Shown here: piece by piece, positions 10,073-30,853 of the stretch
Layout of the letters: each line of letters begins with the position of its first letter
How positions within the stretch are numbered: position 1 is the first letter of the stretch
IMG/VR virus record: IMGVR_UViG_3300006105_000076
Coordinates: 1 to 30,945 of that record
From: a virus
Taxonomy: Duplodnaviria > Caudoviricetes
Reading direction: 5' to 3' (one strand)
Length of the DNA stretch: 30,945 nt
Translations under genes and position numbers: made by a program
The notes under the pieces: model-generated
Database searches by the model: none
What the model saw: the letters and a program-made list of their open reading frames with translations, nothing else
Told to the model about the DNA's origin: nothing

Positions 10073-10633
10073 TCAGTGGGTGTACAAATAGAGGTCGAGA
10101 TCGGCGCGGAGTTTTTCCACGGGACCGTTATTCAGCAAAATCCGGTCGTAATTGATCACTTGATCCTCGGAAGCATGGGATTCGACGGGAACCGTGCCGG
10201 GGCGCCTGACATCGATGATCGTAAACCCAAACTGCTTCAGTGCGGTGACTTCGTTTCCAAACCGCACGTCATCAACGACCACGGAAAGACCCTCGGAAAG
10301 GCAGCGCGTTACCTTGGACAGCAAAATGCGGCGCCAAATGTCCGGCGCAATCAGATCACGCCCCCATTCGACGCCGAGTGTTTGCATGGCATAGCGGGGA
10401 GAACGGCCTCCAAGGAGGTCGGTTGGGGTCTCCTTGAGTTTCCCATCGATCATTTCCACGGATTCGATAATGCCGCACCCGGCCTCAATCAGGAGGCATC
10501 GGATCATCCGTTTAATCGGCGAAGCAAATCTCAAACGGCGGAAATGGTGCTTGAAGACGAGGTGGTCGGCGGCGGTCGATTTGCCGGAGCCAGCCAGACC
10601 GCTGAAGGCAATCAATATGGGCTTGGAAGCCAT
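10073..10633 (-). CDS. Deoxynucleoside monophosphate kinase
   Basis: GLAGSGKST, FASPIK, SPRYAMQTLGVEWGR, DDVRFGNE, HASE. Confidence 0.92.
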   Translation of the reverse strand: MASKPILIAFSGLAGSGKSTAADHLVFKHHFRRLRFASPIKRMIRCLLIEAGCGIIESVEMIDGKLKETPTDLLGGRSPRYAMQTLGVEWGRDLIAPDIWRRILLSKVTRCLSEGLSVVVDDVRFGNEVTALKQFGFTIIDVRRPGTVPVESHASEDQVINYDRILLNNGPVEKLRADLDLYLYTH

Positions 10634-10647
10634 CTCCATGAGTTTGG

Positions 10648-10653
10648 TGTCAA
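10648..10653 (-). promoter_or_regulatory. TTGACA late-type element
   Basis: 14 nt before ATG at 10633. Confidence 0.5.
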
Positions 10654-10773
10654 GTCATTGGGAAAAAGGTTTCCCGACATGGCGCTGTCATCGACATATT
10701 AAAAAAACGTGTCGATGTTTTTAACAATTCACGCCATGTGAATAGAAATTGGCATTTTCTTTACACGTTTAAG

Positions 10774-11337
10774 TCAAGCCAACAGGGATTTTGCCGCTGT
10801 CAGGCGATTTTCCCAACCGGCAAGGAACTTTGCTTGAGAGGGACGGGATGCAACGATCTCCTCATAATGTCGGCGGATCTTTTGCAGAAACCCCATGCAG
10901 AGTCCCGTCGTGTCATGGACGGCAAACGCGGCCTGTCGCGTCATGTCACCAAGCACGCCATCCGTGCCGATCCGTGCCCCGTAATCGTTGCAGGCCTGCT
11001 GGAGGTAACGGATCGCCGAGCCGATGCCGATATTGACCCCCTCAAAGAATACCAATTCCTGTACCAGGACGGGTAACCCATTTAGCGGCGTCCAGTATTT
11101 TTCAAAATAGACCTTGGCAATTTCGTCCGGTTGCGGATCAGCACTGACTTCGGCATCCTTGAGGAGTAATCCGGCAAAGGTTGAACCTCCGGAGTCCTCG
11201 AAGACATTTTCCCAGACGATTTCCCCGGTGACGTGATTGAGTTCACATTCCCAATCCAAAACCAGATTCAGGGCCTTGCTAAATCCAGCGGGGTATCCGG
11301 CTTGCAAAGCCGCCATGCCAATATCGCTTTTTTTCAC
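10774..11337 (-). CDS. Endolysin, glycoside hydrolase family 108 with peptidoglycan-binding domain
   Basis: WE..DSGGSTFAGL, YFEKYW, FFEGVNIG, DGVLGDMT, KFLAGWENR. Confidence 0.9.
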   Translation of the reverse strand: MKKSDIGMAALQAGYPAGFSKALNLVLDWECELNHVTGEIVWENVFEDSGGSTFAGLLLKDAEVSADPQPDEIAKVYFEKYWTPLNGLPVLVQELVFFEGVNIGIGSAIRYLQQACNDYGARIGTDGVLGDMTRQAAFAVHDTTGLCMGFLQKIRRHYEEIVASRPSQAKFLAGWENRLTAAKSLLA

Positions 11338-11606
11338 GGGGAAGGCGGGGTGAGGGGATCGGAAGGCTTGTTCGTGAATGCTGAACCGGCGACTTCGATT
11401 CCTTTACGGAGCGCACCGCCTCCGTAGATGGTGTAGGCAAGATCCTTGAGAGTTCCGCTCATCGCTTCATCGAGGACATGATGCCAGAAGACGCAGTACC
11501 CGAGGATCAGCACCAAAAAAGCCGTGAAAGCCGTGCCGACCCAGCGCATCCAGGAATCGGGGGTGTTCTCCGAATGAACGGAGCGGATGTAGCTCCAGAG
11601 GTTCAT
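11334..11606 (-). CDS. Putative holin
   Basis: Hydrophobic helices; directly upstream of and overlapping the endolysin. Confidence 0.65.
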   Translation of the reverse strand: MNLWSYIRSVHSENTPDSWMRWVGTAFTAFLVLILGYCVFWHHVLDEAMSGTLKDLAYTIYGGGALRKGIEVAGSAFTNKPSDPLTPPSP

Positions 11607-11827
11607 AGAGTTATGTTTTTTGAAATCGGCAAGGCGAAAAGTCTCAACGGGAATCCGCTTTCAATCTCAAAAAATGAAAGGCACCAATTCCGGAACTGCT
11701 GAACCTCTAATGCTAAATCAAAAAGCCACCATGCCCCATATTTAGCAACAGCCTCCTGCTCTTCTTCTGACCAGTAAACAGGGCAAAAAAGGAACCACCC
11801 TTCATGAGATACAAGAATCGACCTCAT
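11603..11827 (-). CDS. Aromatic-rich hypothetical protein (74 aa)
   Basis: TGATG and ATGA overlaps; lower GC. Confidence 0.55.
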   Translation of the reverse strand: MRSILVSHEGWFLFCPVYWSEEEQEAVAKYGAWWLFDLALEVQQFRNWCLSFFEIESGFPLRLFALPISKNITL

Positions 11828-12444
11828 CAAAACGGGAGGTGGGGGGTGAACTCTGAAAGGAAATGCAATGACCAGCGTCCAATGGAAAAGCCGAGCGCGA
11901 ATCCTCCGACGAAGATCCCGGCGAGGGCGACGAGCTGCCACGGCATCTGGACGACTTGGAGGGCGGGCTTGAAGGTCGAGAGGGCGGCCATCCCGGCTGC
12001 GATGGAGAAAATCCACACCAGGGCATCGCGTTCGCGTTCGGCACGGGCGCGGAGGGCCTTGTCCTTGGCATCCTCGGCCTGCCACCAGTCGCGCTGGCCG
12101 ATGGCGATGTCGTATTGCGCCTCGTACCAGGCGATCTTTCCCGTGGCGGTTTCCAGTTTCAGCCCGAGATCATTGATCGTGGCTTGCAGATCACGAACGG
12201 CATTCTTGGCGACCGGATCGGTGACAATGGCGGCGAGGCGTGTGGCCTGTGCCGCTGCCGATTGCTGGGAAACACGAGCCGAGGAGAGCGCCGCATCGAC
12301 CTCGGCATGGGGAGTAGATGAGGAAACATGGCGCACCGGACTGGAAGCGCAGCCGGTCAGGCTGACCAGAACTGTGGCAGCTAAAAAAAGCGCCAGAATT
12401 ACAGAAAGTATCAAAACGGCGGTTTCTTTAATCGCTGGAGTCAT
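11827..12444 (-). CDS. Lipoprotein with coiled coil and C-terminal TM helices; candidate unimolecular spanin
   Basis: Lipobox LTG|C; helical middle; two C-terminal hydrophobic segments; in lysis cassette. Confidence 0.65.
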   Translation of the reverse strand: MTPAIKETAVLILSVILALFLAATVLVSLTGCASSPVRHVSSSTPHAEVDAALSSARVSQQSAAAQATRLAAIVTDPVAKNAVRDLQATINDLGLKLETATGKIAWYEAQYDIAIGQRDWWQAEDAKDKALRARAERERDALVWIFSIAAGMAALSTFKPALQVVQMPWQLVALAGIFVGGFALGFSIGRWSLHFLSEFTPHLPF

Positions 12445-12638
12445 TTTCTGATGTTTTTGTAAATCGTGACTGCCGAGGCGCAGATGGAGAAGGAAGCAGC
12501 ACCAATCGACATGATGACCGCGATGTCGGAGACAATCGGGTGGGATTCGAGAAGACCCACTCCAAGAAAAACCAGCGAAGAGCAGGCCGAGACGATGGAC
12601 CCCGTGATCCCAGGAAGAATGGGTTCCGAATGGTTCAT
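12441..12638 (-). CDS. Small two-TM protein (holin/antiholin-like)
   Basis: Two hydrophobic segments with basic C-terminus. Confidence 0.6.
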   Translation of the reverse strand: MNHSEPILPGITGSIVSACSSLVFLGVGLLESHPIVSDIAVIMSIGAASFSICASAVTIYKNIRK

Positions 12639-12653
12639 CGTCCCGGCTTCTGC

Positions 12654-12848
12654 TTATTTGCTGAAGCGGACGTTCAGGACGCCTGCACCCGTAGGCTGAA
12701 CAGTGATGTTCAGGGCGACGACGTTGGCAATCGATTGACCGGCTGGAAGCGTTACAACGCCGGTGATAGCGTTGAGGACAGCTTGCACATCGGCAACCTG
12801 AAGGGCTGCATTGGCGGTGACGGGCTGGGTTTGGAGAGCAATGCTCAT
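12654..12848 (-). CDS. Small hypothetical protein
   Basis: Clean 64-aa ORF with A/C-rich leader. Confidence 0.65.
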   Translation of the reverse strand: MSIALQTQPVTANAALQVADVQAVLNAITGVVTLPAGQSIANVVALNITVQPTGAGVLNVRFSK

Positions 12849-12949
12849 AAGTTGAGTTTATTGATTCCCTTGGGGAGTCCTTTATTCATGTCGGATCGAT
12901 GCCTGCATGAGCTAGGGATTGACCTTGAAGGGGTTCAAAATAAATGCCG

Positions 12950-12956
12950 TGTCAAA
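12950..12956 (-). promoter_or_regulatory. TTTGACA element ahead of the lysis cassette
   Basis: Directly after the stop at 12959; no ATG at 13-14 nt. Confidence 0.5.
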
Positions 12957-12958
12957 AT

Positions 12959-13222
12959 CTACCATTTTGGCGGTGTTGCCGCGCACGATGCCGAACGAAA
13001 ACCAGTCTTTGAATCCATATTGCATCCGCAAATCAAACATCGTCCATTGTCATAATAGGGGCAAGAAACGCAGATCGTGATCCTAGCGTGCTGTTCGTCG
13101 GCAGTGACGGGTTCCTGTCCAGACACGATGGCTCCGGCTTCCGCCACAAGGGCTTTACCAAAGCTGGCTACTTGGGTCATCAGGGGTGGTGGTGTGGGTT
13201 TCATAGAACAGTTACAGCTCAT
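12959..13222 (-). CDS. Small Cys-motif protein (87 aa)
   Basis: RITICVSCPYYDNGRCLICGC..K..SASC..PPKW; ATGA overlap with upstream gene. Confidence 0.75.
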   Translation of the reverse strand: MSCNCSMKPTPPPLMTQVASFGKALVAEAGAIVSGQEPVTADEQHARITICVSCPYYDNGRCLICGCNMDSKTGFRSASCAATPPKW

Positions 13223-14241
13223 TGGAGTATGGGTATGCTCAGAAGGGCTGCTAAATCGACTTTGGGCTTGGGAGATCCAAGGTTGATGAACGACGGAATC
13301 CCGATCATCTGACCGATCATGCTTTGAGCCTGGCAGAAACAAACAGGGTTAGGAGTTGCAGAGGTGCAAGACCCGTCACAAACAGTGTAAAGGCATCCAT
13401 ATTGATCCTCCCCACAAGACGAATAATCGTAGCACGGTCCAAAACACACACCATGAGCGTCTTGTGCCGTATCTCCACCATTACACATTCCACAATCGTC
13501 AAGGACGGCATTCCCACAGCAGTTGTTTGCGCAATCTAAAGATAATGCGTTGCAATCCCAATTATTATTATTATTAACACCTGCTTCATTGGTGGGGGAA
13601 TAACAAAGCCCATTACAATCGAGAGTAGCATCCCCGTTGCAATATCCTAAACAATCAAGATAGATGCAGTTTCCATTGCTGTCCTCTCCACAAGCAGAGA
13701 CATCCCAGCAATTCCCACCGCAAACATTTTGGTAATCGCTATATTCGCAACCAACTCCCCAGATAATGTTGCAAATAGAACCAAAACCATTGCAAATGCA
13801 AGGAGATAATCCGTTGTTGTCTAAACAACCACAATCATTTGTTCCACACTCACTACAACAATGCCCTCCTGCGTTGACACTTTGAGGGGAGCATTCTGTA
13901 ATATTGTAATCACTAAAATCATAAAAAGTATTTCCATCCTCGTTTGAGGGGGAATAGTAATTTACACCCGAGCAATCAATAATTGCATCTCCGTTGCAGT
14001 ATCCAAGAGCATCCAATGTTGAAGATCCACCGCATACACCATTGCAATCAGCCCCTGCTTGCGAGGATGATATTCCTAAATCGGGGCCACAAAGTCCGTT
14101 ACAATACCATTGTGCTGCATTAGTGTCAGAACAATTCGTGTAACTTGTGCAATCTCCATTGATGTCGGGATACAAACAATCCCCATTCTCATCTACTCCA
14201 CACGATTTTTCATACCCGTAAACGCTAGAATCGCACGGCAT
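13219..14241 (-). CDS. Cys-rich acidic repeat protein
   Basis: About 43 Cys in 340 aa (hand count); DCNGVCGG, LGYCNGDA, CGED repeats; no signal peptide; low GC. Confidence 0.8.
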   Translation of the reverse strand: MPCDSSVYGYEKSCGVDENGDCLYPDINGDCTSYTNCSDTNAAQWYCNGLCGPDLGISSSQAGADCNGVCGGSSTLDALGYCNGDAIIDCSGVNYYSPSNEDGNTFYDFSDYNITECSPQSVNAGGHCCSECGTNDCGCLDNNGLSPCICNGFGSICNIIWGVGCEYSDYQNVCGGNCWDVSACGEDSNGNCIYLDCLGYCNGDATLDCNGLCYSPTNEAGVNNNNNWDCNALSLDCANNCCGNAVLDDCGMCNGGDTAQDAHGVCFGPCYDYSSCGEDQYGCLYTVCDGSCTSATPNPVCFCQAQSMIGQMIGIPSFINLGSPKPKVDLAALLSIPILQ

Positions 14242-14249
14242 CGCAATTC

Positions 14250-15470
14250 CTAGTTAGAACAAACGACGGAAGTCAGGTTTCCTGATCCATCATAACTCAT
14301 AGCAAAAGTGCCATGAGTCAGAGGATTATTAGAAGCGTCGGTTGCCTGAATGCCGATCAGGACAGTTGGTGAACCATCCCATGAAAGATTGACGTATCCG
14401 ATGACATTTGAGGACTGGTCTTGGATGATGTATCGAGCAGGGTTTGCTCCGGTTCCACCATCGGCATAAGCTGAAGATCCGAGTGGAAATAGATTGGAAA
14501 GCCCATTGTAGTTGGTTGCATGGAGATTTCCACTTGCATCGAATCCAGCCGACCCGTCGGCAAAAGATGCAGATCCATCGGGGTTCAAAGATGAATTGTT
14601 GGTGTATAGCCCACCGGAAGCCCCAACATAGCCATTGGTTCCAAGGTTGCCTCCTATATCAATGGTAAGATTTTGAGAACCAACAGAAATACCATTTCCA
14701 AAATCAGGATCTGATGATGGATTAACCGGAGTGTAACCAAGTGCGGATTCAATGTTTTCAGAAGTTACAGATGCATCTGAACCAGCAGCACCAGTGGAAC
14801 CCGTAGCCCCGGTAGCTCCTACCAGAGAGGAAACGGCGATGAGATTTGTCCAAGACGAGTCACCAACGTGCTGCCATTGAATGTACCCCCCCGAAACTTG
14901 CAGATTAACGGATGCACCATTGCTGCCGTTCTGCCCATTGCTTCCAGCAGCACCCTGCAATGAAGAAACGGCGATGAGATTTGTCCAGCTTGAGTCACCA
15001 ACGTGCTGCCACTGAATATATCCTCCGGCAACTTGGAGATTAACTGACGCACCAGCAGCTCCAGGGCTGCCATTGCTACCAGCGGCACCCATGGCTCCAG
15101 TGGCACCGACCAGGGATGACACCGCGATTAAATTGTTCCAGGACGAGTCACCAACGTGCTGCCATTGGATATATCCGCCGGATACTTGGAGATTAACTGA
15201 CGCACCAGCAGCTCCAGGGCTGCCATTGCTACCCGCAGGACCCGTTGCTCCAGTGGCTCCGATCAGGGACGAAACTGCGATGAGATTTGTCCAGGACGAG
15301 TCACCAACGTGTTGCCACTGAATATATCCTCCGGCAACTTGGAGATTAACCGAAGCACCAGCGGAGCCAGGGCTTCCAGCGGGTCCTACGGGACCAACTC
15401 CTCCACCTTGCACGACGGCATCGATGACGGGGCCGGTCGGATTGATCGTGACATTGATCGTATCGCTCAT
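14250..15470 (-). CDS. Collagen-like tail fibre
   Basis: Gly-X-Y tracts interrupted by four SVNLQVxGGYIQWQHVGDSSWxNLIAVSSL domains. Confidence 0.85.
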   Translation of the reverse strand: MSDTINVTINPTGPVIDAVVQGGGVGPVGPAGSPGSAGASVNLQVAGGYIQWQHVGDSSWTNLIAVSSLIGATGATGPAGSNGSPGAAGASVNLQVSGGYIQWQHVGDSSWNNLIAVSSLVGATGAMGAAGSNGSPGAAGASVNLQVAGGYIQWQHVGDSSWTNLIAVSSLQGAAGSNGQNGSNGASVNLQVSGGYIQWQHVGDSSWTNLIAVSSLVGATGATGSTGAAGSDASVTSENIESALGYTPVNPSSDPDFGNGISVGSQNLTIDIGGNLGTNGYVGASGGLYTNNSSLNPDGSASFADGSAGFDASGNLHATNYNGLSNLFPLGSSAYADGGTGANPARYIIQDQSSNVIGYVNLSWDGSPTVLIGIQATDASNNPLTHGTFAMSYDGSGNLTSVVCSN

Positions 15471-15820
15471 GCCGAATAGTTGGGAGCGATGGTCACGGGG
15501 CCAGAAACCACCTGAAGCGGTTCCCCTCCATTCGTGGTCACAAAGATGTCATGAAAAAACGTGGCGTCTGAGGGAAATGGAAGCGGCAGCGCGGCGGTTT
15601 GAGTTCCCGTAAGGGAACGGGTAATGATCCCGGATGTCGCCGGGGAGGAAATCGTGACCGTGAAAGAAGCCAGAACCGCATAACCGAGCGAGGTCGGACC
15701 ACGCCGGATCTGGGAAATGACGGTGGCTCCCGTCAAATCAATCGCCGTGGTGTCCGTGTGGGTGAGGTTGATCGTATCCTCATAAAACTGCCCCTGAGTG
15801 ATGGGAATCGGCACGGCCAT
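15467..15820 (-). CDS. Fibre adaptor, BppU/LtfC-like beta-sandwich
   Basis: ITQG..IDLTGATVISQIR..LTGTQTAAL..HDI..SGPVTI pattern. Confidence 0.7.
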   Translation of the reverse strand: MAVPIPITQGQFYEDTINLTHTDTTAIDLTGATVISQIRRGPTSLGYAVLASFTVTISSPATSGIITRSLTGTQTAALPLPFPSDATFFHDIFVTTNGGEPLQVVSGPVTIAPNYSA

Positions 15821-15833
15821 GCCGATGCAGGGA

Positions 15834-15840
15834 TGTCAAA
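15834..15840 (-). promoter_or_regulatory. TTTGACA late element
   Basis: 13 nt before ATG at 15820. Confidence 0.65.
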
Positions 15841-15978
15841 CAAGCCTCTGGGAAGAGGCGCGTAAGACTATTTCGACAGAAATAGCCCGGAGGGCGGCAC
15901 CGCTTTGCGGGAGCAAAGTGCCGTCAAAAGGAAGACGATCAGCAGACCAACAAGCCGTCAAAAGCTCCGCGCAAACCA

Positions 15979-16989
15979 TCACACCGTCACAAAAGGCTGC
16001 TCCCTTTGCCTCAAATGCCCGAAATACTCGGGAGATTGTTCATGCCACGCCCTGTGGTGGACGATCTTGTCACCACGACGCTTGATATGGTCGCAGGCGA
16101 TGTGAGGGACGCAAGCGATCCGGAGACCTTTGGGGTGCCACCGTTGCCAGCATAGGAAAAGATCCTGAGTGCCACGACCATCGTATCCGATGAAATCGGC
16201 AAGTTGGAGGGCCTTACGGGATAGCAACGTGCAACCAAGGCCGCACCAATCCGAAGGAACCACGGCCCCAAGGCCGATACCTGGGTAGGCGTAATCCATC
16301 CACCCCCGGCGTCGCCATCCGTGCTTTGCCGTGATTTCCCAGATATTCCCATCAGGGGGGCATTTCTTTACCCGTTCGCGGAGGCGGATCATCCGTTTCT
16401 GCTCTTTCTTTGCCGTTGCTTTGTCCTGGCATCCTTTTAACCGATCCTCGCTGGCATCGAGGCAGAGCTTTAGACGGGCTGGAAGTTTCCTTTCTTTGGG
16501 CAAGAAATCCTCAGCAATTGGATTCTGTGGCGTTCCAAATCCGCCGAGGAAAAGGCCATTTGGATAGGTTGCTGCGGCGATGTCATAATAGGGATCACCG
16601 ACCGAATCCGGCATTTGGAGCGTCCATTCTAGAACGCGAAGCGAATCAGGCGTGGGAATCGTGTCACTCTCGACCGACCAACAAAGATCGGCTTTGATCC
16701 GACGGGCAAAGGCGAAAGCTGCCCCCTGAAGCTGGGCGATACGGATCTGGGCTGACTCTTTGTAGTCTTTTTCGTCCTCGATGATTGGCAACCGGATGGC
16801 CGTAATCTTCCAGCCCTCGGGAAGGTGTCCCTTGGCAAACTCCTCGGCACGTTTGGATTCATCGCTCTGATCGGTCGCAAAGATAAAATGCGCTTCAGAG
16901 TAATGACCGGCAGCCGTGGAAATGGCCCTGATCAGTTGGGGCCAGACATGGAGGTAGGAGCGGGTCGCCGCCGTGATGATTGCAAACAT
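15979..16989 (-). CDS. GT-A fold glycosyltransferase
   Basis: WSVESDT (DxD-like), DWCGLGCTLLSRKAL, TQDLFLC, CDH. Confidence 0.8.
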   Translation of the reverse strand: MFAIITAATRSYLHVWPQLIRAISTAAGHYSEAHFIFATDQSDESKRAEEFAKGHLPEGWKITAIRLPIIEDEKDYKESAQIRIAQLQGAAFAFARRIKADLCWSVESDTIPTPDSLRVLEWTLQMPDSVGDPYYDIAAATYPNGLFLGGFGTPQNPIAEDFLPKERKLPARLKLCLDASEDRLKGCQDKATAKKEQKRMIRLRERVKKCPPDGNIWEITAKHGWRRRGWMDYAYPGIGLGAVVPSDWCGLGCTLLSRKALQLADFIGYDGRGTQDLFLCWQRWHPKGLRIACVPHIACDHIKRRGDKIVHHRAWHEQSPEYFGHLRQREQPFVTV

Positions 16990-17013
16990 GGGATCGTTGA
17001 CCCCGGCGGCGTG

Positions 17014-18330
17014 TCAATTAATCCAATAAGTACCGTCTGGATATCCAGAATATGTTGATCCCACGCTGTCGGTGGAATAAGTCACCGGAGGGATGGCAAG
17101 GATGAGCGGCTCAATGACTACATTCGCGTCTGTAGCACAAGAAATGACCGAGGAGTAATTATTATCCACCGTAAAGGTCTTGCTCGATGTGCCATCGGAG
17201 GCATTGGTGATTGCCAGAAACATCCCCGTTGAAGCTCCTCCATTGTAAGAAACCGACCAATTTTGGCCTCCTGAAAATGTTGCTGCATTTGTAAATGTTG
17301 TAAAATCCACATTAGAAAAACCAATAATCCCTGAAGTGGTAACGGACGAGATGGCTGAACCATCAACAGAAAGAGAAGATGATGCCGTGGTGCCCACGGT
17401 GGATCCGCTGACCAGTGTGGTCGTTTGGTAGATCACGGAATCTCCCGTGATGTAATATCCGGAAGTGTAGGTGGAATAGGAAATAGCCTCTCGGATGCCT
17501 GGATGCTCGGAGGCCGTCAACAATCCGGAGGGTTGGAGATCAGTTCCGTATTGGGAATCCGCGAGATAAACATCACCACCGTTTCCCCATGTCGTTCCCT
17601 CCCAAGACAAGATGGCTCCGAGGTTTTTATATCCTTGCAAAGGAACCATGCCAGAAAGAGTTATCGTGGTTTCTGACGTGCTTTCATAGCTGTAGGGAGC
17701 ATTGTAAATCCACGTTTGCCCGTAATCTGAGCCATGCTCTTCTGAGTTCAAATCAGTCATCGAAAGATAATTGAAACAAGTTGCTAAAATAGCAGTCGAT
17801 CCATAGGTCAAACTAATGCTGGAAGTTGTGGAAAGGTCAGAAATCGGCCCTGTGTATCCAGAATTTGCCGTAAAGAATGTGCCGTAAATCACCTCATCAC
17901 TTGCAGCCGTTTGCGTGGAATTGAGCGAATGAGAGCAAAGGCTTGTGGTGACCACTGTCTCATTTTCCACCGAAAAAGTTGTGAAACTGACAGCCGTGGT
18001 GGATGCAGTGGTGGATCCCGTTTCAAAACTCGTCGTGTAAAGATTCCACGAGGCCCCTGATGAAGCCGATGTCGTGGTCGTGGACATGAAAGCATCAGCA
18101 ACGATTGCTTCCAAATAAGGATATGACCCAGAATTCCCTATTTCGCGAGTTCCAGAATCTGCAAATGTACCACTTCCAGAACCACCCGAAACAATCGGAC
18201 CTCCTGTTGTATTTGCTGCTATGTAAGTATCATTTTCGGTGAAATTGATTTGAGGCCATGAAACCGAATAATATGGAGGCCAAGTATCTTGAGGCCACGC
18301 ATCGCCAAACTCGTAGCTGGTGATCGGCAT
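17014..18330 (-). CDS. Ser/Thr-rich tail protein
   Basis: Long S/T runs, very few K/R; position in tail module. Confidence 0.75.
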   Translation of the reverse strand: MPITSYEFGDAWPQDTWPPYYSVSWPQINFTENDTYIAANTTGGPIVSGGSGSGTFADSGTREIGNSGSYPYLEAIVADAFMSTTTTSASSGASWNLYTTSFETGSTTASTTAVSFTTFSVENETVVTTSLCSHSLNSTQTAASDEVIYGTFFTANSGYTGPISDLSTTSSISLTYGSTAILATCFNYLSMTDLNSEEHGSDYGQTWIYNAPYSYESTSETTITLSGMVPLQGYKNLGAILSWEGTTWGNGGDVYLADSQYGTDLQPSGLLTASEHPGIREAISYSTYTSGYYITGDSVIYQTTTLVSGSTVGTTASSSLSVDGSAISSVTTSGIIGFSNVDFTTFTNAATFSGGQNWSVSYNGGASTGMFLAITNASDGTSSKTFTVDNNYSSVISCATDANVVIEPLILAIPPVTYSTDSVGSTYSGYPDGTYWIN

Positions 18331-21105: not shown

Positions 21106-21123
21106 CTTTGCAAAGGTTAAAAG

Positions 21124-21813
21124 TCAAATCCCACGAATTTTAAATCCGGGGTATTTTTTGGCCACATCAGCAATTTTTTTGAACACTCCGGAACGGACAT
21201 TACGGTGGTAATATCCGACACGGCCATTGATTGCCTTGAGCAAAGCAGCACGACCACCGCCGCGAACGGCTGCGCGGGTGAAATTCTGAATCAGGAATCC
21301 AACCTTGGAAGCCGTCACTTTCCTGACATGGCTAACCTCATCGGAAAGGACTTTCCCATTCACCATGGCTTTGTTGACGTAGCCGGTAGGCGTTTTTGGC
21401 AAAGGGATGCCCATGCGTTGCGCCAAAAGCACCCAGGAGCGTTTTGCCGTTCCGATGCGGCGTTTCAACTCAGCTTCCCGCTGTTCGGAAGTCATCTGAA
21501 TCCATGCCCAGATATAATCGGGGTAATGGTGGCGTCCACTTTTGCCGGGGCCGACAAGATAAGCTGTTCCCTTGGCTAGCGAGGATTGGGGATGCTTGGC
21601 AGGAGACGGTTCGCGTATAAAAACCCATTTTTCTAGGCTTTTTTTAATGGAATTTGCCGTGGCCTTTGGCGTGTTGGAAACGGCAGCAGAAAGTACGCTT
21701 CCGATTTCGGCTTTGACCACTTCTTCATAATTGACCCCGGTGAGGCGTGCCATCGCTTCCACGGCGCGGTTGAAGTTTGAGGTGTCGATTGTGAGGCCGG
21801 ATTTACTCATCAT
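21124..21813 (-). CDS. Basic neck/tail completion protein (HK97 gp10-like)
   Basis: IDTSNFNRA..VSNTP; highly basic. Confidence 0.55.
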   Translation of the reverse strand: MMSKSGLTIDTSNFNRAVEAMARLTGVNYEEVVKAEIGSVLSAAVSNTPKATANSIKKSLEKWVFIREPSPAKHPQSSLAKGTAYLVGPGKSGRHHYPDYIWAWIQMTSEQREAELKRRIGTAKRSWVLLAQRMGIPLPKTPTGYVNKAMVNGKVLSDEVSHVRKVTASKVGFLIQNFTRAAVRGGGRAALLKAINGRVGYYHRNVRSGVFKKIADVAKKYPGFKIRGI

Positions 21814-23570: not shown

Positions 23571-23666
23571 TTACTTGGATGGCAGGGGTTCGGGTGCCGG
23601 TGCCGGGGCGGGTGCCGCGACATCCTTTTCGAGGATGAGGGGGTTGGGCTTTTTCTCGTCGCTCAT
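23571..23666 (-). CDS. 31-aa peptide MSDEKKPNPLILEKDVAAPAPAPAPEPLPSK (absent from ORF track)
   Basis: ATG 14 nt after TTTGACA; stop 3 nt before next start. Confidence 0.65.
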   Translation of the reverse strand: MSDEKKPNPLILEKDVAAPAPAPAPEPLPSK

Positions 23667-23680: not shown

Positions 23681-23687
23681 TGTCAAA
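23681..23687 (-). promoter_or_regulatory. TTTGACA late element
   Basis: 14 nt before ATG at 23666. Confidence 0.65.
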
Positions 23688-24506: not shown

Positions 24507-24513
24507 TGTCAAA
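24507..24513 (-). promoter_or_regulatory. TTTGACA late element
   Basis: 14 nt before GTG at 24492; just after the capsid terminator. Confidence 0.65.
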
Positions 24514-24519: not shown

Positions 24520-24558
24520 AAGAAAGAAAGAAGGGGCACCCCTTTCGAGGTGCCCCTT
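24520..24558 (-). terminator. Rho-independent terminator after capsid gene
   Basis: Perfect 10-bp stem AAGGGGCACC/GGTGCCCCTT then CTTTCTTTCTT. Confidence 0.85.
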
Positions 24559-24578: not shown

Positions 24579-25496
24579 TTAGGCAGAGATCGTCCGGAGG
24601 GCGCTGGTATCAGCAACCGCCGAGCCAACAGCCAGGTCATACGAGCCGTAGAGGGAGCGGGTGGACTGGTCGGCCCAGATGTTGAGGTTGACCGCGACGC
24701 CGAGATCGGGAATCTCGATGACCTCGGAGAGCTGGAGCAGGGAAGCCACAGCGGGATCGATGTACGGGATGGCGGTGGCCACGGCCATCGCTTCCTCTGA
24801 GGCTACTAGGCCCTTCACTGTGCGCGTCGTACCGTTCAAACCGTTGTCTGTTCCACCGGTGATTCCGGTCCAACGGTTGTTCAGGTAGATGCCGTTCTCA
24901 AACCCGTAGGCACCCTTCTGGGCGACATCGAGGTTGAATCCGGTCTGGGGCAGGAGGTACTGGTAGTAGCTGCCGTCGAGGATCAGCGCCTTGCTGGAGC
25001 TGTTGCTGATGGAAGCCCAGATCGTTCCGAGGGCGGCACTGATGAAAGTGTTGCCGGGAAGCGCATTGCTGGTCGTGATCGCGGAGGTGTAAGCCGTTCC
25101 GAAGGTCGGGGATCCGACGGTTCCTGCACCGATCGGCGTCAGGACGTTGTCCATGACGGCATCGGCGAGTTTGCGCAGAGCGATCTTCATGAGCTTCTCC
25201 AGACGGAAGCCCTGGTTGAGCTGCTGGCTGGTCAGGCCGAATCCGGCGCTGATGTGGGTCATGGTGATCGCCGCGTTGCTGAGGGTCGAACCGGCAACGG
25301 CAAACGACGTGGGGTTGGAGACCGCAGCGGCGCTGGCGGTGGCGACACCGACCTGCAACTTGCGGAGAGGATCGACGACATCCGACGAGAAATCCGTCGA
25401 AAATGCGTTGAGTGGTGCGAGGCGGTTCTGGAGAACCGTCACGGCTGCCCTCGTGCCCGTATCGACAACGAGGGAACTGCTAAATGTGTTGGACAT
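24579..25496 (-). CDS. Major capsid protein
   Basis: Follows protease/scaffold; 305 aa; strong codon bias; terminator downstream. Confidence 0.8.
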   Translation of the reverse strand: MSNTFSSSLVVDTGTRAAVTVLQNRLAPLNAFSTDFSSDVVDPLRKLQVGVATASAAAVSNPTSFAVAGSTLSNAAITMTHISAGFGLTSQQLNQGFRLEKLMKIALRKLADAVMDNVLTPIGAGTVGSPTFGTAYTSAITTSNALPGNTFISAALGTIWASISNSSSKALILDGSYYQYLLPQTGFNLDVAQKGAYGFENGIYLNNRWTGITGGTDNGLNGTTRTVKGLVASEEAMAVATAIPYIDPAVASLLQLSEVIEIPDLGVAVNLNIWADQSTRSLYGSYDLAVGSAVADTSALRTISA

Positions 25497-25520
25497 TTGA
25501 ATGTGGGGTTGGGGTTGGGT

Positions 25521-26645
25521 TTATTTCCTCGACCGGGCTGCAATGGCCTTTTCGAGGTCACGGCGGTGGGTTTGGAAAAATTCTAGGCGTGCAGGACCGG
25601 CTTCCATCGCCTCGTATTGCTCGACCAAGGATGGCTGCGCGGCACTTTCGGAAATCTGCGGGATCTCACAGGCAGGCATGAGGCCGAGAACCGTTTTGAC
25701 GGAGCGGTGAAGCATGTTCAGCTCGACGAGCTGGGCTTCCTTGATGGCAAGATTTTCACGCAGGGCCTTCAGCTCGGTTTTCACGGCGGCAAGCTCGATG
25801 CGGTTGGCTTCGAACTCGGTATCAATGACGCGAAGGCGTGCCAATTCGGCAGGAACGACAACCGGGGCGGCGGCGGATTCAACTGCAGATTCCTCTGCTG
25901 TTGGTTCTGCTTTTACCTCAGGTTCCTCAAGAACGGGTTCGCTCTCGATGACGGAATTGAGTTCTTCCTTACCTTCCTCAACGACCGCCTCCACAGCGGT
26001 GGCCTCGGCGGCAGGGGCGGCTTCCACAACCACAGCCGCCTCAACGGGGGCTTCGGCGGGAATTTCGGTGGGTTGGGCGTTCTCGTCCATAGCTTGAAAA
26101 AGGCCGTTTCCGCAAGCGGGGTTTTTAACCAGGTCGGCTCCGTAAAGTTCACAAACTCTCGCCGCATAGGCGACGATGTCATCGGCAACTACCTGTGCAA
26201 GGGTGCCATCCTGATCATCCTCGTCGTCATCCGGTTCCATGTCGGCCCCTTTGACCGGATCGGGGGCGTTCATGAAAGAAATCGAAATGCCGAAATTGCT
26301 CGGCATGGTCTCGGCCATTTCAAGGATCGTGGCAAAACTCTCGTGGGTTTTGAGCAGGTAAAGGTCACCGCGTACCTTTTCCCCATCGAGGTAGACATCG
26401 CGGATGGCTCCTACGAGATCCTCAATCCCGGTGCCGTGGTCAAAGTTCACAGGAACGCCGTCGGCAAATGCCTGGGCGGCGACCGCAACTTCGGAAAGCG
26501 TGGTGTCATCGACAATGATGGGTTCCCCAAGGAAGGTATGTCCCTTGGCAGGTCCCTTGCTGATCAAACTGACTCCACGAAGCACTCCGGCCTCGGCATC
26601 AATGCGCGAGTCTGCTGCTACGGAAAATAAGGAAAGTTTGCTCAT
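25521..26645 (-). CDS. Prohead protease fused to scaffold
   Basis: VNFDHG, FGISISF, ADLVKNPA; acidic Ala/Glu linker and coiled coil. Confidence 0.85.
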   Translation of the reverse strand: MSKLSLFSVAADSRIDAEAGVLRGVSLISKGPAKGHTFLGEPIIVDDTTLSEVAVAAQAFADGVPVNFDHGTGIEDLVGAIRDVYLDGEKVRGDLYLLKTHESFATILEMAETMPSNFGISISFMNAPDPVKGADMEPDDDEDDQDGTLAQVVADDIVAYAARVCELYGADLVKNPACGNGLFQAMDENAQPTEIPAEAPVEAAVVVEAAPAAEATAVEAVVEEGKEELNSVIESEPVLEEPEVKAEPTAEESAVESAAAPVVVPAELARLRVIDTEFEANRIELAAVKTELKALRENLAIKEAQLVELNMLHRSVKTVLGLMPACEIPQISESAAQPSLVEQYEAMEAGPARLEFFQTHRRDLEKAIAARSRK

Positions 26646-28144
26646 TCTGGATTTCCCACGAGTGTCAAATCTGGCGTGACGGGGCTGCCGGGGGCCGGTG
26701 GGAAAACTTCGGCAACGGAAAGCTGCACTCCCTCTTCCTTGGCAATCTGTTCGACGAGCTTTTTCCTGCGTGCAGCAAACCGGACAATGTCCTCGTCCTG
26801 ACGGTCAGCGTCCAAGCCCTGCAAAGCGTAATAGCGTTGGGGAGATATCTGACCGCGAAGCAAAAGGTCACTGAGGAGGCGTCCTTCCCTGGCAAAATCG
26901 ACACTGATCCGGGCGGGAGGCGTCAGCTCGCAGCGCCACCAATCGGATCCATTTCCCGGCATCGGCAACCGTCCTGCCTCAATCTCCTGCCAAACCCAGA
27001 AACGCCAGAAAGGAAGCGCAAAAGAATGCGAGATCACGTCGCGGATCTCATCGAGCTTTCCGCTGGCTTCTTCCAATATCCAACGCTGATTCGCACCACC
27101 GGCATCGGTGGCATCAAAAAGGAACTGGCTGCTGACGCCCAACCCGACGGCGATTTCTTCTTTCAAGGTATTGAGAAACTCACGGATGTTGGATGATGGA
27201 TGATTATTAATAAGACTCTCTACACGCTCACCTGGCTTGAGCTGCGGGATCACCGATCCGCTGGTAATGATGTCGTGGGTCATTGTCCCGGTGCCGCTGC
27301 CACCGGATCCCTTGACCAAAGCGGAACCCAACCCAATGGAACCGGCCTCCGGGGATGTAATGACCAGACCAAGGGATGCCCCAAGCTTGGCGCTGGCTTT
27401 TTCCGAGGCAAGGTACTCCGCGATATCCTGCAACGTCTGGGCGGCACGGGCCAGATGGCTGGGGGCACGCACGCCTCCAAGGCGGTAGGCCATCTTGACC
27501 TGAGTCATGTCATCCGCGCTGACATCGGTGTAATCATCGGAACCGGGAGCGGTTAAAACCCTCCAACGGGTTGGCCGTCCACGGGAATCGACCTTAGCCC
27601 CATCGTTCCATCCATCCTTTTCATCGCCCTGGACGCTGCCGACATTTTCCCCAGGGACGAGGCGGAACATGGCGCGGCCATTTTTGCTGACGGTGCGCTG
27701 CCAAAAGACATCACCGGCCAAAGTCATGCTCTTGGTAAGCAATGTCTGGGCTTGGTAAAAATTCACATTCCCGGAAACATCGACACCAAAGGCTGAATTT
27801 CCACAGGCGTCCTCAAAGGCACGCTCGGCCATTCGGTTCCACTTTTCATCAGCAGTGCGAGCTTGCGGAACAAGAGGACCGACAAGGCGTGAAATCTTAT
27901 CCACGGCACCACCGGCCAAACCGGAATTATTATACAACCAGTATGCCTTGCGGCATAAGCTCAAACGGGATCCGGAAACGAGATCCTTGGACGCATCCAG
28001 AGTCGGTGCGTAGATCCACATGCGGTTTGTGGAATAAAGATTATTCCCAGCCTCATAAGCCGCAAAATCGGATTGTTTTCTAGGGCGGCCAGCACCGACT
28101 CGGGCACCTCCGCGTTTTGATTTTGATTTGGTAGGTGTCGCCAT
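26642..28144 (-). CDS. Lambda-type portal protein
   Basis: RKAYWLYNNSG, NFYQAQ..GDVF, DGAKVDSRGRP, LKPGE. Confidence 0.9.
   Translation of the reverse strand: MATPTKSKSKRGGARVGAGRPRKQSDFAAYEAGNNLYSTNRMWIYAPTLDASKDLVSGSRLSLCRKAYWLYNNSGLAGGAVDKISRLVGPLVPQARTADEKWNRMAERAFEDACGNSAFGVDVSGNVNFYQAQTLLTKSMTLAGDVFWQRTVSKNGRAMFRLVPGENVGSVQGDEKDGWNDGAKVDSRGRPTRWRVLTAPGSDDYTDVSADDMTQVKMAYRLGGVRAPSHLARAAQTLQDIAEYLASEKASAKLGASLGLVITSPEAGSIGLGSALVKGSGGSGTGTMTHDIITSGSVIPQLKPGERVESLINNHPSSNIREFLNTLKEEIAVGLGVSSQFLFDATDAGGANQRWILEEASGKLDEIRDVISHSFALPFWRFWVWQEIEAGRLPMPGNGSDWWRCELTPPARISVDFAREGRLLSDLLLRGQISPQRYYALQGLDADRQDEDIVRFAARRKKLVEQIAKEEGVQLSVAEVFPPAPGSPVTPDLTLVGNPE
26663..26669 (-). promoter_or_regulatory. 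TTTGACA late element inside the portal 3' end
   Basis: 17 nt before protease ATG. Confidence 0.5.
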
Positions 28145-28158
28145 AAGAGGCGATCACT

Positions 28159-28165
28159 TGTCAAA
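28159..28165 (-). promoter_or_regulatory. TTTGACA late element
   Basis: 14 nt before portal ATG. Confidence 0.65.
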
Positions 28166-28177
28166 AAATCAAAGAAA

Positions 28178-28504
28178 TCAAAGGACCGCCACCGTGCGTC
28201 CGTAATCGACGCGGGTGCAAAGCTGTCGGGACTGAAGCGCCGTGCCGTCAGTGTTCAAAGGGGCATCACCTTTTTCGGCACGCACATCCATGACCACGCC
28301 GAGGTAAAGCCATTTCGGAAATGCTACCTCACCATTGGCAGATCCGCCGTCGGCTGCCGTGCCGGTGATGGTTACCTCCTCGGAAGCGGAGGCAAAGATG
28401 GAGTCGGATAGTGCCTTCAGCTCCTCGATGCTCTTGTATCGGAGGTATGATTTGATTCCGGAGACCTTCTGATGGTCAAAGGTAGCGTTGGTGCTGGAAG
28501 CCAT
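28178..28504 (-). CDS. Head completion protein (gpW position)
   Basis: Between terL and portal as in lambda. Confidence 0.6.
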   Translation of the reverse strand: MASSTNATFDHQKVSGIKSYLRYKSIEELKALSDSIFASASEEVTITGTAADGGSANGEVAFPKWLYLGVVMDVRAEKGDAPLNTDGTALQSRQLCTRVDYGRTVAVL

Positions 28505-28517
28505 GCATCGCTAGGGA

Positions 28518-28524
28518 TGTCAAA
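28518..28524 (-). promoter_or_regulatory. TTTGACA late element overlapping the terL stop
   Basis: 13 nt before ATG at 28504. Confidence 0.6.
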
Positions 28525-30253
28525 GTTTCTCCCGAAGGATGGCCCAGCCGACGCAGTGGAGCTTGGTACAATCCCCGTAGTGGTCGTTCTCCAATTTCTT
28601 GAACTCGTAGGGGGTGGTGCGGTTGTTCCTGTTCTCGACAAGTACCTGACCGCTCAGGCCTGCAATGAAATCGCGGGTGACATCCTCGGGAAGATGAAGC
28701 AGAGGGGGTAGCTTCTTTTGAACCCGATCGATATAGAGGTGCATTTTCCAAACATGATCCGAATAGCTATAAAGAATGGATCCGACTCCGGGGAGGGGTG
28801 ATACGTGGAATTGCTTGAAGGTGGCACCCCCGCCCTTGCTTGGATAGAAGAGGCCTTCCGATCTTCCGCAGACGGAATAGACTCTCTCGGTGAAGAATCC
28901 CGAATCGATAAGTCCAGCCATCGGGCGTACCTGGGTGACGCCGTCGGGCATGAGGTAGGTTCTGGCTGCCAAGAATGAATCACTGACCAATTCATCGACC
29001 TCGGCGACTTCACCCCAATCAATCACCCAGCTTTCTCCGGACATGATCCGAGCCTCGACGGTCCAATGCGTCCGGGTGCCACCCGGATCGGCGCAGAGGG
29101 TAAGGATAGGAGTCTGTCCATCAATGACCGCCGCCGCCGGGATCTGGCGCTGACGGTAGTCGCTCCGGAGATCGAGGAGGCTGTCATCCTTGACGGTGGT
29201 TGCCCGGTCTTCCCACGGCAGTCCGAGATAGGTGTTGTAAAAATCATGGAGGCCACCGGGGCTGTCGCGTTTTTGGAGGAAGAGTTTGGCAAGTTCTCCC
29301 CAGCTCGATTGCGGGGAATACATGGCATTGAGATGGCAGGAGATGTGATCTCTGGGGGCGGCAATGTTCCCGGCAATCCATCGACCGGATGCCACGAGGC
29401 GGCGTTGCATTTCCTGTGGCCAGAGGGATCCGCATGCTTCGCACTGGTAGCAGGCTGTATCCGAAACGCCATCGAGGTCCCAGACGCCATCCGCTCCACG
29501 CAGCTCGTCGGACCATTTTACCTGCTCAAACCGAAGGTGCTGGCTTTTTCCGCAATCGGGGCAATCGACGTGGTATCTGTGTTGGCTGCCGGAAAGAAAT
29601 TGGCTGTAGATTGCTCCGGTGGCAACCGTGGGCGTCGATACCAGGACACGCTTGCAAATGGAGCGGTAGAAGTTGGTTCGTGCCATTGCCAGCTCCAGCG
29701 ATGGAGCTTCGGTGGCGGAGGCGTCGGGCCATTTGTCCACCTCGTCGCAAAAAAGGTAGCGGGTAGGGCGGGAGGCAAGGTTGGCTTCGGAATTGGAACC
29801 GACTAACTTGACCGTGCAACTCTTGAACTGCATTTCCGTTTTTTTGAAAAGATCGGGATCATCGGGAAGCAATGGCCGGAGCGCGGCACACGATTTTACT
29901 CGTGGGATAAGTTCACGTTCGCTCCATGATTTTGCATTCTCTCCAGTGGAAGTGACGTACAGGACGGGACCCGGATCCTCGGCGACAGCGTATTGGATGA
30001 GGTTGGCAAGAAGGGTTGTTCCGCCGATCTGGGCGCTCTTTACAAAAGTGATCTGCCTGATTGCCCGATCACCGAACCAGAGATGAAGCTGCCTGAGGTA
30101 GGGGGTGAAATCACAGTTGAATCTCCCAGGGCGCGGAGAGAATCGGGGATCGATGACGATCTCGCGTTCAGCCCATGTCAGAGGGTCGGGACGCTCCTTC
30201 GGTTCCCACATCGAGGCGAGGTCGGCCTCAAGTCGTTGCAGGGCCGGTGACAT
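28520..30253 (-). CDS. terL: Terminase large subunit, lambda gpA family
   Basis: TPYL, KSAQIGGT, LFCDEVD, STPT, CPDC..CEAC, FYNTYLGLPW, NDHYGDC; start at MSPALQ. Confidence 0.96.
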   Translation of the reverse strand: MSPALQRLEADLASMWEPKERPDPLTWAEREIVIDPRFSPRPGRFNCDFTPYLRQLHLWFGDRAIRQITFVKSAQIGGTTLLANLIQYAVAEDPGPVLYVTSTGENAKSWSERELIPRVKSCAALRPLLPDDPDLFKKTEMQFKSCTVKLVGSNSEANLASRPTRYLFCDEVDKWPDASATEAPSLELAMARTNFYRSICKRVLVSTPTVATGAIYSQFLSGSQHRYHVDCPDCGKSQHLRFEQVKWSDELRGADGVWDLDGVSDTACYQCEACGSLWPQEMQRRLVASGRWIAGNIAAPRDHISCHLNAMYSPQSSWGELAKLFLQKRDSPGGLHDFYNTYLGLPWEDRATTVKDDSLLDLRSDYRQRQIPAAAVIDGQTPILTLCADPGGTRTHWTVEARIMSGESWVIDWGEVAEVDELVSDSFLAARTYLMPDGVTQVRPMAGLIDSGFFTERVYSVCGRSEGLFYPSKGGGATFKQFHVSPLPGVGSILYSYSDHVWKMHLYIDRVQKKLPPLLHLPEDVTRDFIAGLSGQVLVENRNNRTTPYEFKKLENDHYGDCTKLHCVGWAILREKL

Positions 30254-30833
30254 CAGCGGACGTTTCCTTTTGGTTCCACGGGGTTGATGCAGCCGCAGCC
30301 GCCAGCTCACGAAGGATCGACACCACTTCCTCCCTGACAATCCCCGAAACATCGACGGGAGATTCGATACGGGATGCCAAAACGTCAGGAAGGTTTTCCA
30401 TAAGTTGCTTGGCCATTGCCATGTTACCCAGGATGAATTCGGAAACTTTGGAAACTTCGACGAGTTTTCCGGAAGCAGTTGCCAGTTTTAGGTTGTTTTC
30501 CGAAACGAGGGTCCAGAGTTTGTGCGCTTCGATGGATGCTTTCAGTAATGTCGGAAGGGAATTCATGTCACCCCTGGCTTCAGCCTGATCACAGAGATTA
30601 GAAAGACGGGCATGACGGACGGCAGCGGCCTGTTCGGTCTCTTCAGGCGTCATGGGCTTTGCATTTGCTTCGGGTCGTGCAAAAGAAAACTGAGAATCTT
30701 GTGCGCGAGAACGGAGGAAATCCCGCCACCGAGGATCATCGAGGTTCCGCCAGTTACGAACGGCGCGGACGGAAACGGAATGAACTTTGGCGCATTCCTC
30801 AATAAGGGCAGATTCGTGACGTGATTTCCGCAT
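30228..30833 (-). CDS. terS: Terminase small subunit (Nu1-like)
   Basis: HTH CAKVHSVSVRAVRNW; GKLVEVSKV..LMENLPDVLA; upstream of terL. Confidence 0.85.
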   Translation of the reverse strand: MRKSRHESALIEECAKVHSVSVRAVRNWRNLDDPRWRDFLRSRAQDSQFSFARPEANAKPMTPEETEQAAAVRHARLSNLCDQAEARGDMNSLPTLLKASIEAHKLWTLVSENNLKLATASGKLVEVSKVSEFILGNMAMAKQLMENLPDVLASRIESPVDVSGIVREEVVSILRELAAAAASTPWNQKETSADVTGPATT

Positions 30834-30846
30834 TCGTTCCGAGGAA

Positions 30847-30853
30847 TGTCAAA
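30847..30853 (-). promoter_or_regulatory. TTTGACA late element
   Basis: 13 nt before terS ATG. Confidence 0.65.

Follow-up and report, generated by a model that had tools for sequence, protein, structure and literature searches.

The late genes of one temperate phage raise the question of what the word TTTGACA does when it stands only 13–14 nucleotides (nt) ahead of a start codon. The phage is known from IMG/VR record IMGVR_UViG_3300006105_000076, and its genome of 30,945 nt, here called the window, was analysed at full length together with related viral loci and candidate host genomes. An original prediction, made from the letters of the window, had offered two answers: a compact promoter giving leaderless late mRNAs gene by gene, or a signal for translation initiation. 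Several sequence tests favour the former, in a version where the mRNAs may be leaderless or nearly so. TTTGACA would be a compact phage late promoter, with the word at about -19 to -14 and no -10 box, and transcription would begin on a purine that follows a pyrimidine, 13–14 nt past TTTGACA. An ATG or GTG at the start point would make the mRNA leaderless; in other cases a leader of 2–100 nt would precede the start codon, A/C-rich where long. Host RNA polymerase (RNAP) would be redirected to these sites by a phage factor, most likely a helix-turn-helix (HTH) protein of 165 amino acids (aa). The probability of this explanation as a whole can be put at roughly 0.7.

Nearly all genes of the window lie on the minus strand, and 11 of the 12 copies of TTGACA lie on this coding strand. 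A comparison with shuffled sequence on both strands, suggested along with the original prediction, did not find the total raised (12 copies against a shuffle mean of 16.1, with 87 of 100 shuffles reaching 12) and left the coding-strand bias of 11/12 standing; as the total is ordinary, strand and position, not abundance, are the unusual features. All 11 coding-strand copies are found at gene boundaries, as had been claimed, and this includes an extra early copy at 3823, outside the range covered by that claim. At eight of the 11, an ATG or GTG opening at least 30 codons lies at a spacer of 13–17 nt (background 0.089 per site, binomial p 5e-7), and in a hand-made list of 40 gene starts no hexamer outranks TTGACA at 13–17 nt before the start. 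By a regular-expression search, a word resembling the Shine-Dalgarno (SD) sequence precedes none of ten motif genes, as against five early genes (4791, 4306, 3787, 2572 and 1544) and two others, in line with the earlier statement that motif genes mostly lack it.

The copies can be followed along the minus strand from the genome end, and every spacer given for them in the original prediction was reproduced. TTTGACA at 30847–30853, close to the genome end and conserved in 13 relatives, lies 13 nt before the terS ATG (30833). The copy at 28518–28524 includes the terL stop codon and precedes the ATG (28504) of a 108-aa head gene by 13 nt, and that at 28159–28165 is followed by the portal ATG (28144) after 14 nt. 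Within the portal 3' end, TTTGACA at 26663–26669 has the ATG (26645) of a 374-aa gene in the protease position 17 nt downstream, and a pyrimidine-purine step at +14 would place the transcription start of this gene at 26648. A hairpin of 12 pairs resembling an intrinsic terminator (24531–24558) follows the gene in the capsid position, and TTTGACA at 24507–24513 does lie 7 nt past its T-run, as had been noticed, with the GTG (24492) of a 108-aa gene 14 nt downstream. Next, TTTGACA at 23681–23687 stands 14 nt before a 31-aa open reading frame (ORF; 23571–23666) that heads the tail-tube block; this ORF is conserved with the motif in at least five loci (L001, L005, L007, L010 and L032), and other clades have an A/C-rich non-coding leader in its position. 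The tape-measure ATG (21105) is preceded at 16 nt by the variant TTTGACT (21122–21128), and the tape-measure orthologues listed mostly carry TTGACA, a few TTGACT or none. ATTGACA at 17012–17018 lies 22 nt from the ATG (16989) of a 336-aa gene; exactly 13 nt past the motif begins a conserved leader start, AACGATC, which gives a predicted transcription start at 16998. The T-run of a small terminator-like hairpin (15844–15859) reaches into the TTTGACA at 15834–15840, 13 nt before the ATG (15820) of a 117-aa fibre-assembly gene. Ahead of the lysis block, TTTGACA at 12950–12956 has its ATG (12848) 101 nt downstream and a conserved leader start, GAACCCC, 13 nt past the motif (predicted start 12936). 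CTTGACA at 10648–10654 precedes the dNMP kinase ATG at 10633 by 14 nt and an in-frame ATG at 10639 by 8 nt. Finally, ATTGACA at 3823–3829 belongs to the early region; an ATG with GGAGG lies 35 nt downstream, the pyrimidine-purine step is absent at 13/14, and this copy is possibly of another class.

Ten or eleven copies would thus split the late region into short units, namely terS-terL, the head gene, portal, protease-capsid, a restart after the capsid terminator, tail tube, tape measure, fibre, lysis and dNMP kinase. The phrase "gene by gene" overstates the case: no copy stands before terL, the capsid-position gene, the tail terminator or most of the tail genes, which would be co-transcribed. 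Likewise, the term "late" follows from gene content, with one copy in the early region standing apart. The gene names come from a scan of 63 ORFs against PHROGs (cut-off E 0.001) and of 30 ORFs against Pfam. PHROGs matches identify terS, terL, a lambda-type portal, tape measure, fibre assembly, endolysin, dNMP kinase and a tyrosine integrase, and five of the earlier names (terS, portal, tape measure, fibre, dNMP kinase) are so confirmed. The names "gpW-like", "protease", "capsid" and "head closure" found no PHROGs match at E 0.001 and no relevant Pfam match and serve as positional labels only; "glycosyltransferase", given to the 336-aa gene, has a best Pfam match of only E 0.14.

The same arrangement recurs in relatives. 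In 94 related viral loci TTGACA occurs 311 times in sense and 30 times in antisense, and ATG peaks 13–17 nt past it, a peak unmatched by any of 13 control hexamers, so that the motif-to-start spacing on which the original prediction staked its promoter is present there. In a dereplicated set (30 of 101 sequences, 486 kb), TTGACA ranks second or third among 4096 hexamers for sense enrichment and 14th to 72nd for antisense depletion. Distant prophages of the likely host order, with terL just 21–36% identical, keep the same motif spacing, and the motif is absent from two non-Verrucomicrobia prophages with related terL. The element is confined to phages and enriched before late genes: 800 kb of unselected host DNA (400 kb of G326, 200 kb of G080 and 200 kb of G112) contains no peak at 13–17. 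In five whole host genomes there are 48 matches at spacer 13–14 as against 37 at 10–11, and TTGACN occurs in the 90 nt upstream of just one of 37 host tRNAs, where it stands at the canonical 45 nt. Host-wide use of the spacing was rejected on the missing host peak, as was an excess of the motif in one metagenome-assembled genome (MAG; G004, 40 copies against 4 for reversed-pattern controls), for no gene-start peak appeared in 347 kb around its matches.

Where transcription would start can be approached through spacing, measured at 190 dereplicated TTTGACA sites of 731; sites and phages are mutually related, which makes the p-values of these tests optimistic. ATG or GTG occurs at offsets 8–12 in 6, 4, 0, 6 and 0 sites and then in 56 at 13, 24 at 14, 33 at 15, 15 at 16 and 12 at 17, with a tail to 19 and beyond. 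Such a fixed distance to the start codon, in genes without an SD word, would also suit a rival explanation, in which the ribosome, or a protein of the phage, binds UUUGACA on the mRNA some 13 nt ahead of the start and the word serves as a non-SD translation signal. The two can be told apart where the start codon lies elsewhere. At 110 such sites a pyrimidine-purine step falls at 13/14 in 85 (shuffle mean 54, p ~0.0002), and at the 44 whose start is at least 20 nt off or absent it does so in 33 (mean 22, p 0.0004); this step is reported to mark bacterial start sites across phyla, Akkermansia included (PMC4782308). In three phages the leader of the 336-aa gene always begins 13 nt past the motif, with the ATG at 22, 26 and 26 nt; three phages share a lysis-block leader (12950 in the window) that begins at 13, its ATG lying 101 nt from the motif, a distance that ranges from 38 to 101 nt among orthologues; and at 25 tail-tube sites an A/C-rich leader runs from 13–14 with the ATG 27–53 nt off. 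The motif is thus kept with the ATG 27–101 nt away, its distance being fixed to the leader start and not to the ATG, contrary to what a translation signal would predict. Sequence composition changes at the same point: orthologous sites in 13 groups have a mean identity of 0.59 in the spacer and 0.74 just downstream, and G makes up 0.22 of the spacer but 0.06 of the leader (21 sites). The region from -13 to -1 is G-rich (0.29), unlike capsid leaders (0.10), which also speaks against a signal read on the mRNA.

Other observations bear on both explanations. Of 80 starts at 13/14, 33 are GTG, as against 5 of the 91 more distant ones (Fisher 1e-8), and TTG is never the start at 13/14. This concentration matches the ATG/GTG rule reported for mycobacterial leaderless mRNA (PMC4633059), and a GTG tolerated only at the best spacing would suit an optimal ribosome distance as well. 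A translation signal would further agree with copies that precede internal in-frame starts, and with the TGA of the motif closing an upstream frame of at least 60 codons at 66 of 190 sites; translational coupling through this TGA was rejected, since it covers only those 66 sites. In the 16S 3' tails of three genomes of the likely host order the sequence is canonical and no UGUCAA complement lies near the end; an extended anti-SD was rejected for this reason. The antisense strand is purged of the hexamer, as expected of a DNA signal and not of one in mRNA: the 30 dereplicated loci hold 24 antisense copies against 82–93 expected, and under a codon-preserving null the hexamer is found 14 times against 54.5 expected and the 7-mer once against 15.3, the antisense 7-mer in three host samples amounting to 14 against 17.9. 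Lastly, back-to-back copies serve divergent genes in three homologous prophages of G125, with ATGs 45–47 nt apart, and a relaxed scan within 250 nt of these pairs finds no canonical promoter in five of six directions; the arrangement counts as one evolutionary event. With host genes making no use of the motif either, a translation signal is quite improbable, and TTTGACA is probably, judging from these sequence patterns, a promoter with its transcription start at +13/14.

Two observations touch these sites. Several ClpP-type protease genes contain the motif 14–17 nt before an in-frame internal Met (L003:4753, L050:10408, L065:14718, L097:14082 and others). By analogy with lambda C/Nu3, where a scaffold gene is nested in the protease gene, such an internal motif would give the scaffold its own promoter. 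As for G125, its single-contig genome of 5.6 Mb holds four motif-using prophages (C1, near 1.70, 2.32, 3.90 and 3.99 Mb), which would make a convenient experimental system, provided the strain is in culture.

If TTTGACA is a promoter, it is one that carries the defining -35 hexamer of σ70 promoters, TTGACA, and lacks the features that define other elements. At 124 dereplicated sites TANNNT never occurs 16–18 nt downstream, the place of a canonical -10, nor does it at the copies scored for it; at offsets 0–8, as in extended -10 or -10-only leaderless promoters, it occurs in at most one of the 124. Reading the ATG as the TG of an extended -10 was rejected, since no TANNNT stands behind it. The σ54 consensus has GG at -24 and TTGC at -12; here no upstream position is conserved and the word is TTGACA. 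The -10-like hexamer that directly follows the -35-like site in Q-type pauses was not found at the 124 sites either. By the tests that define them, the element is neither a -35/-10, a -10-only, a σ54, an SD nor a Q-pause element.

These absences weigh on two further explanations. According to the simpler one, the word is nothing more than a normal -35 hexamer, or else it arises from stop codons and gene packing, to which the chance-level total and the third of copies that overlap a stop codon would correspond. However, there is no -10 word at 16–18 nt (0/124), strand and spacing are strict, the motif is kept in coding sequence in different frames, and the two non-Verrucomicrobia prophages with related terL lack it, which together leave this explanation hardly any probability. 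According to the other, long late transcripts are made with a Q- or AlpA-like antiterminator, a role then filled by the HTH protein, and on them the word marks a σ-region-4 pause or loading site, or a processing point; 5' ends at +13/14 would be processed or absent. The position of the HTH gene in the early operon resembles that of lambdoid Q, the Q-lambda loading complex is described with σ region 4 on a -35-like site directly upstream of region 2 (PMC9388147), and an AlpA complex (7xyb_G) appears among weak fold matches to the HTH protein (Z 4.9, root-mean-square deviation 6.0, 88 aligned). Against this, the required -10-like hexamer is missing, lone genes on the opposite strand carry the motif where read-through cannot explain them, the pyrimidine-purine step is typical of initiation, and the AlpA match is at noise level. 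No Q family is found among the PHROGs matches of 63 ORFs or the Pfam matches of 30. A pause or processing site has only a small probability beside the compact promoter.

Whether the host could read such a promoter unaided depends on what the phage and its host supply. The window genome looks complete, because a 9-nt repeat is common to both ends and relatives with terminal repeats and a similar layout measure 28.5–32 kb. Among the scanned ORFs, PHROGs and Pfam reveal no polymerase and no full σ factor. Since the genome looks complete and neither was found in it, and since host genes lack the spacing, a phage factor is likely needed. The host itself likely belongs to the Verrucomicrobia, order Chthoniobacterales, to which Terrimicrobiaceae belong. 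Beside the integrase, an attP core of 33 bp (6427–6459, plus strand) is identical to the tRNA-Ser(GCT) 3' end of three genomes from this order (G104, G112, G284); a 29-nt attP core matched, and a 37-nt attP pattern was found in 0 of 102 genomes of the family. Six terL matches of 58–61% identity come from MAGs labelled Terrimicrobiaceae, Chthoniobacter, Spartobacteria, Verrucomicrobiota, Akkermansiaceae and Burkholderiaceae, and the Burkholderiaceae one may have been mis-binned.

When the ORFs of 101 sequences are clustered, a single candidate for a conserved DNA-binding protein emerges from the early operon. It is the 165-aa HTH protein encoded at 4818–5315 on the minus strand, which has no named Pfam family and whose own family numbers 564 representatives at E 0.001 or better. 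It is present in all 21 near-complete phages chosen by terL or portal, several of which had contributed to the HTH profile, and in four more chosen by HTH; 24 of these 25 phages have 5–11 motif copies on one strand. Because viral scans with integrase, endolysin and dNMP kinase yielded so few loci (4, 3 and 2), prophages were used for a negative set. This independent set comprised 20 of 89 portal matches in 401 genomes, with long contigs favoured; the motif was scored as used with at least three exact copies on one strand, or with 10 of 17 variant copies in the case of G274, and the 4 of 43 variant copies in G080 were counted as chance. Among these portal-picked prophage regions, 8/10 with the HTH protein use the motif as against 1/10 without (Fisher 0.005). 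Moreover, the base before the hexamer shifts with the clade: 108 of 127 near-clade sites read T-TTGACA, and G-TTGAC(A/G) predominates in distant prophages, where the HTH recognition helix is different. This is a hint that the protein may read the word directly, and could also be drift.

These data bear on the possibility that the compact promoter is read by the unmodified host holoenzyme, through an alternative host σ factor, or by another phage protein, the HTH protein merely riding along. TTGACA is the exact word of canonical σ region 4.2, which is carried by host RpoD and kept in a second host σ factor. Host genes and tRNAs nevertheless do not use this spacing, HTH and motif co-occur across phages with terL only 21–36% identical, and the flanks shift with the HTH clade. 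A promoter read without the HTH protein is accordingly unlikely, and we lean, on co-occurrence and flanking bases, towards the HTH protein as the activator of the motif promoters. It would put a σ-region-4-type reader, either its own HTH or host region 4, on TTGACA, adjoining the opening of the bubble.

The HTH itself is predicted at residues 112–137, and two models of the protein have pLDDT scores of 71.5 and 88.3. Foldseek with both models returned no PDB match at E 0.001 or better (best E 0.09); in fold comparison no Z exceeded 5.8, with σ factors, KorA/ArdK and TFIIB-type proteins on top at noise level. Matches in BFVD and Atlas are uncharacterised phage proteins only, and PDB sequence matches are generic HTH. 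One profile alignment is collinear with σ70 regions 3 to 4 over 104 columns, weakly (probability 19%); it begins at region 3, and only about 40 residues of the HTH protein precede it. A deeper profile aligns just the 26-column HTH. Compared with host region 4.2, hhalign gives 15% for the full protein and 57% for trimmed pieces, Pfam Sigma70_r4_2 lies under the cut-off (E 0.008–0.06), and no σ region 2 family is among its Pfam matches. The protein thus weakly resembles σ70 regions 3–4, a lead and not a homology call. Carried further, this lead would make it a phage "half-sigma", region 3–4-like and without region 2, that recruits host RNAP to a lone -35 word at -19 to -14 for leaderless starts, a tentative idea that we hold as doubtful.

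Several results weigh against the compact promoter or against the part given to the HTH protein. Foremost, a -10-like TANNNT occurs in at most 2 of 124 sites at any offset, and no upstream element is apparent (relative entropy at most 0.11 bits from -40 to -1 at the 124 sites). The first half of the spacer is G/C-rich, and together with the missing -10 word this leaves DNA melting unexplained. The terS and dNMP kinase copies, with the start codon at 13/14, have no pyrimidine before the purine. Terminator-like hairpins lie upstream at just 24/190 sites as against 29/400 controls. Hosts share part of the antisense hexamer depletion (G112, 7 against 19.8, ratio 0.35; G080, 11 against 18.6, 0.59), with G326 barely depleted (41 against 44). 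Sense coding sequence shows no depletion of the 7-mer (19 copies, 10.3 expected), in part because the 7-mer is kept before the internal Met of ClpP-type protease genes, as in about 11 of 17 listed in-frame copies. Regarding the HTH protein, the complete 38-kb phage G465 has a close homolog (E 6e-52) and leaves the motif unused (0/21 copies), and G125b uses the motif (6/10) without a detectable HTH, both of which would fit a promoter read without the HTH protein; a candidate distant HTH in G125b failed at a probability of 0.4%. Of the nine double negatives, six have the same portal subtype and four measure just 16–20 kb; bins may also be mixed. Finally, the likeness to σ factors over the whole HTH protein is weak in hhalign (probability 15–19%).

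Some further observations concern neighbouring features. G465 (L301–L302) has another head module, late genes oppositely oriented and canonical-looking promoters. A phage contig in a candidate host bin (G284:C414, L340–L341) has primase-like and dNMP kinase genes 75% identical to those of the window; its terL and HTH are distant from the window's and it uses the motif eight times, which points to module shuffling. The immunity region of the window (7504–8244) has no classic cI/cro pair and instead contains an Arc-like 50-aa gene and an HTH gene opposite a divergent 78-aa ORF. Directly after the early ATTGACA, an inverted repeat GGGTC-4-GACCC (3809–3821, minus strand; preserved in L034 apart from one arm change) is a possible operator or hairpin ahead of the replication gene. 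Upstream of terS (30834–30900, minus strand) GTTCC units are repeated, and in the near clade a conserved TTCC-NN-GGAA palindrome occupies the spacer between motif and terS ATG; these are likely terminase or packaging sites overlapping the terS promoter, in which case TerS might repress its own promoter. The predicted 88-nt leader before the lysis block (12849–12936, minus strand), its 5' part conserved in L173 and L174, could be a structured RNA that delays lysis. The 30 dereplicated phage loci strongly avoid the palindromic hexamers GCCGGC, GGCGCC, CCGCGG and CGATCG, as expected of host restriction pressure. On the host side, inspection by eye of tRNA promoters (L135–L164) often shows CTTGCC or TTGCA about 40–45 nt upstream, the -10 being weak, and antisense TTGAC(A/T/G) is depleted in the genes of G112; it may be that these hosts rely on the -35 element.

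No published description of this motif was found among the titles and abstract openings listed in searches on the motif and host group, and the layout is likely an undescribed compact promoter. Nor does the word occur in two papers on initiation signals that were searched by term. As generally understood, initiation by the σ70 family needs the -10 element for opening, with the -35 word at a set spacing of about 17 bp from it. A phage-activated late promoter of altered geometry would be categorically new if initiation without a -10 element holds. A widespread -35-only promoter 13 bp from the start would mean that bacterial RNAP can be re-geared to another geometry, and would raise the question of how polymerase melts DNA without a -10. 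It would also be the first late-transcription switch for Verrucomicrobia phages, give a function to an HTH family with more than 500 distant representatives, make start codons and hidden ORFs in these genomes easy to call by a simple rule, and possibly provide a 7-bp promoter that stays silent in the absence of one small protein. Should the more doubtful half-sigma be true, the collapsed region-4 geometry of lambda Q, known only from a paused state, would have been turned into a general mode of initiation, common to most lambda-portal temperate phages of one bacterial order.

In known phage late promoters that have a single element or need an activator, namely T4 gp55 TATAAATA, P1 Lpa, Mu C and RinA/ArpU, late genes are marked by one short word and served by one small phage protein; their words and positions differ from TTTGACA, and neither Pfam nor PHROGs links the HTH protein to these families. 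The lambda Q complex has a 1-bp gap, and hexamer + 1 + 6 + 6 reproduces the 13-nt spacing. As described, Q at PR' moves σ region 4 to a -35-like site upstream of region 2, displacing region 3 (PMC9388147). That is a paused elongation complex, formed at one site where both a -10-like hexamer and a Q-binding element are required (PMC9388147), whereas here about ten sites per genome have neither and no Q family match is found. T4 AsiA/MotA, P23-45 gp39 and Xp10 P7 are presented as phage proteins that remodel or move σ region 4 and so switch promoter choice (PMC7403470). They remove region 4 from TTGACA and leave the -10 in use (PMC7403470), whereas here TTGACA is kept and the -10 is gone. Ordinary σ70 -35/-10 promoters share the hexamer, the pyrimidine-purine start step and, within the phylum, leaderless mRNAs, leaderless σ70 promoters being reported for about 10% of start sites in Akkermansia (PMC4782308); the phage hexamer, in contrast, would sit at -19 to -14 instead of near -35, with no -10 box. 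The Thermus phages Lalka27a and YS40 are described as having many late promoters, mostly leaderless, that start on the A or G of the start codon, with a phage factor proposed to redirect host polymerase, as here (bioRxiv 10.64898/2026.04.20.719267). They retain a TANNNT-type -10 (TAGGGT) 6 nt before the start (bioRxiv 10.64898/2026.04.20.719267), whereas the phage of the window has only the -35 word at 13–14. Among the systems compared here, the dense leaderless late promoters of Lalka27a are the nearest working analogue of the TTTGACA element.

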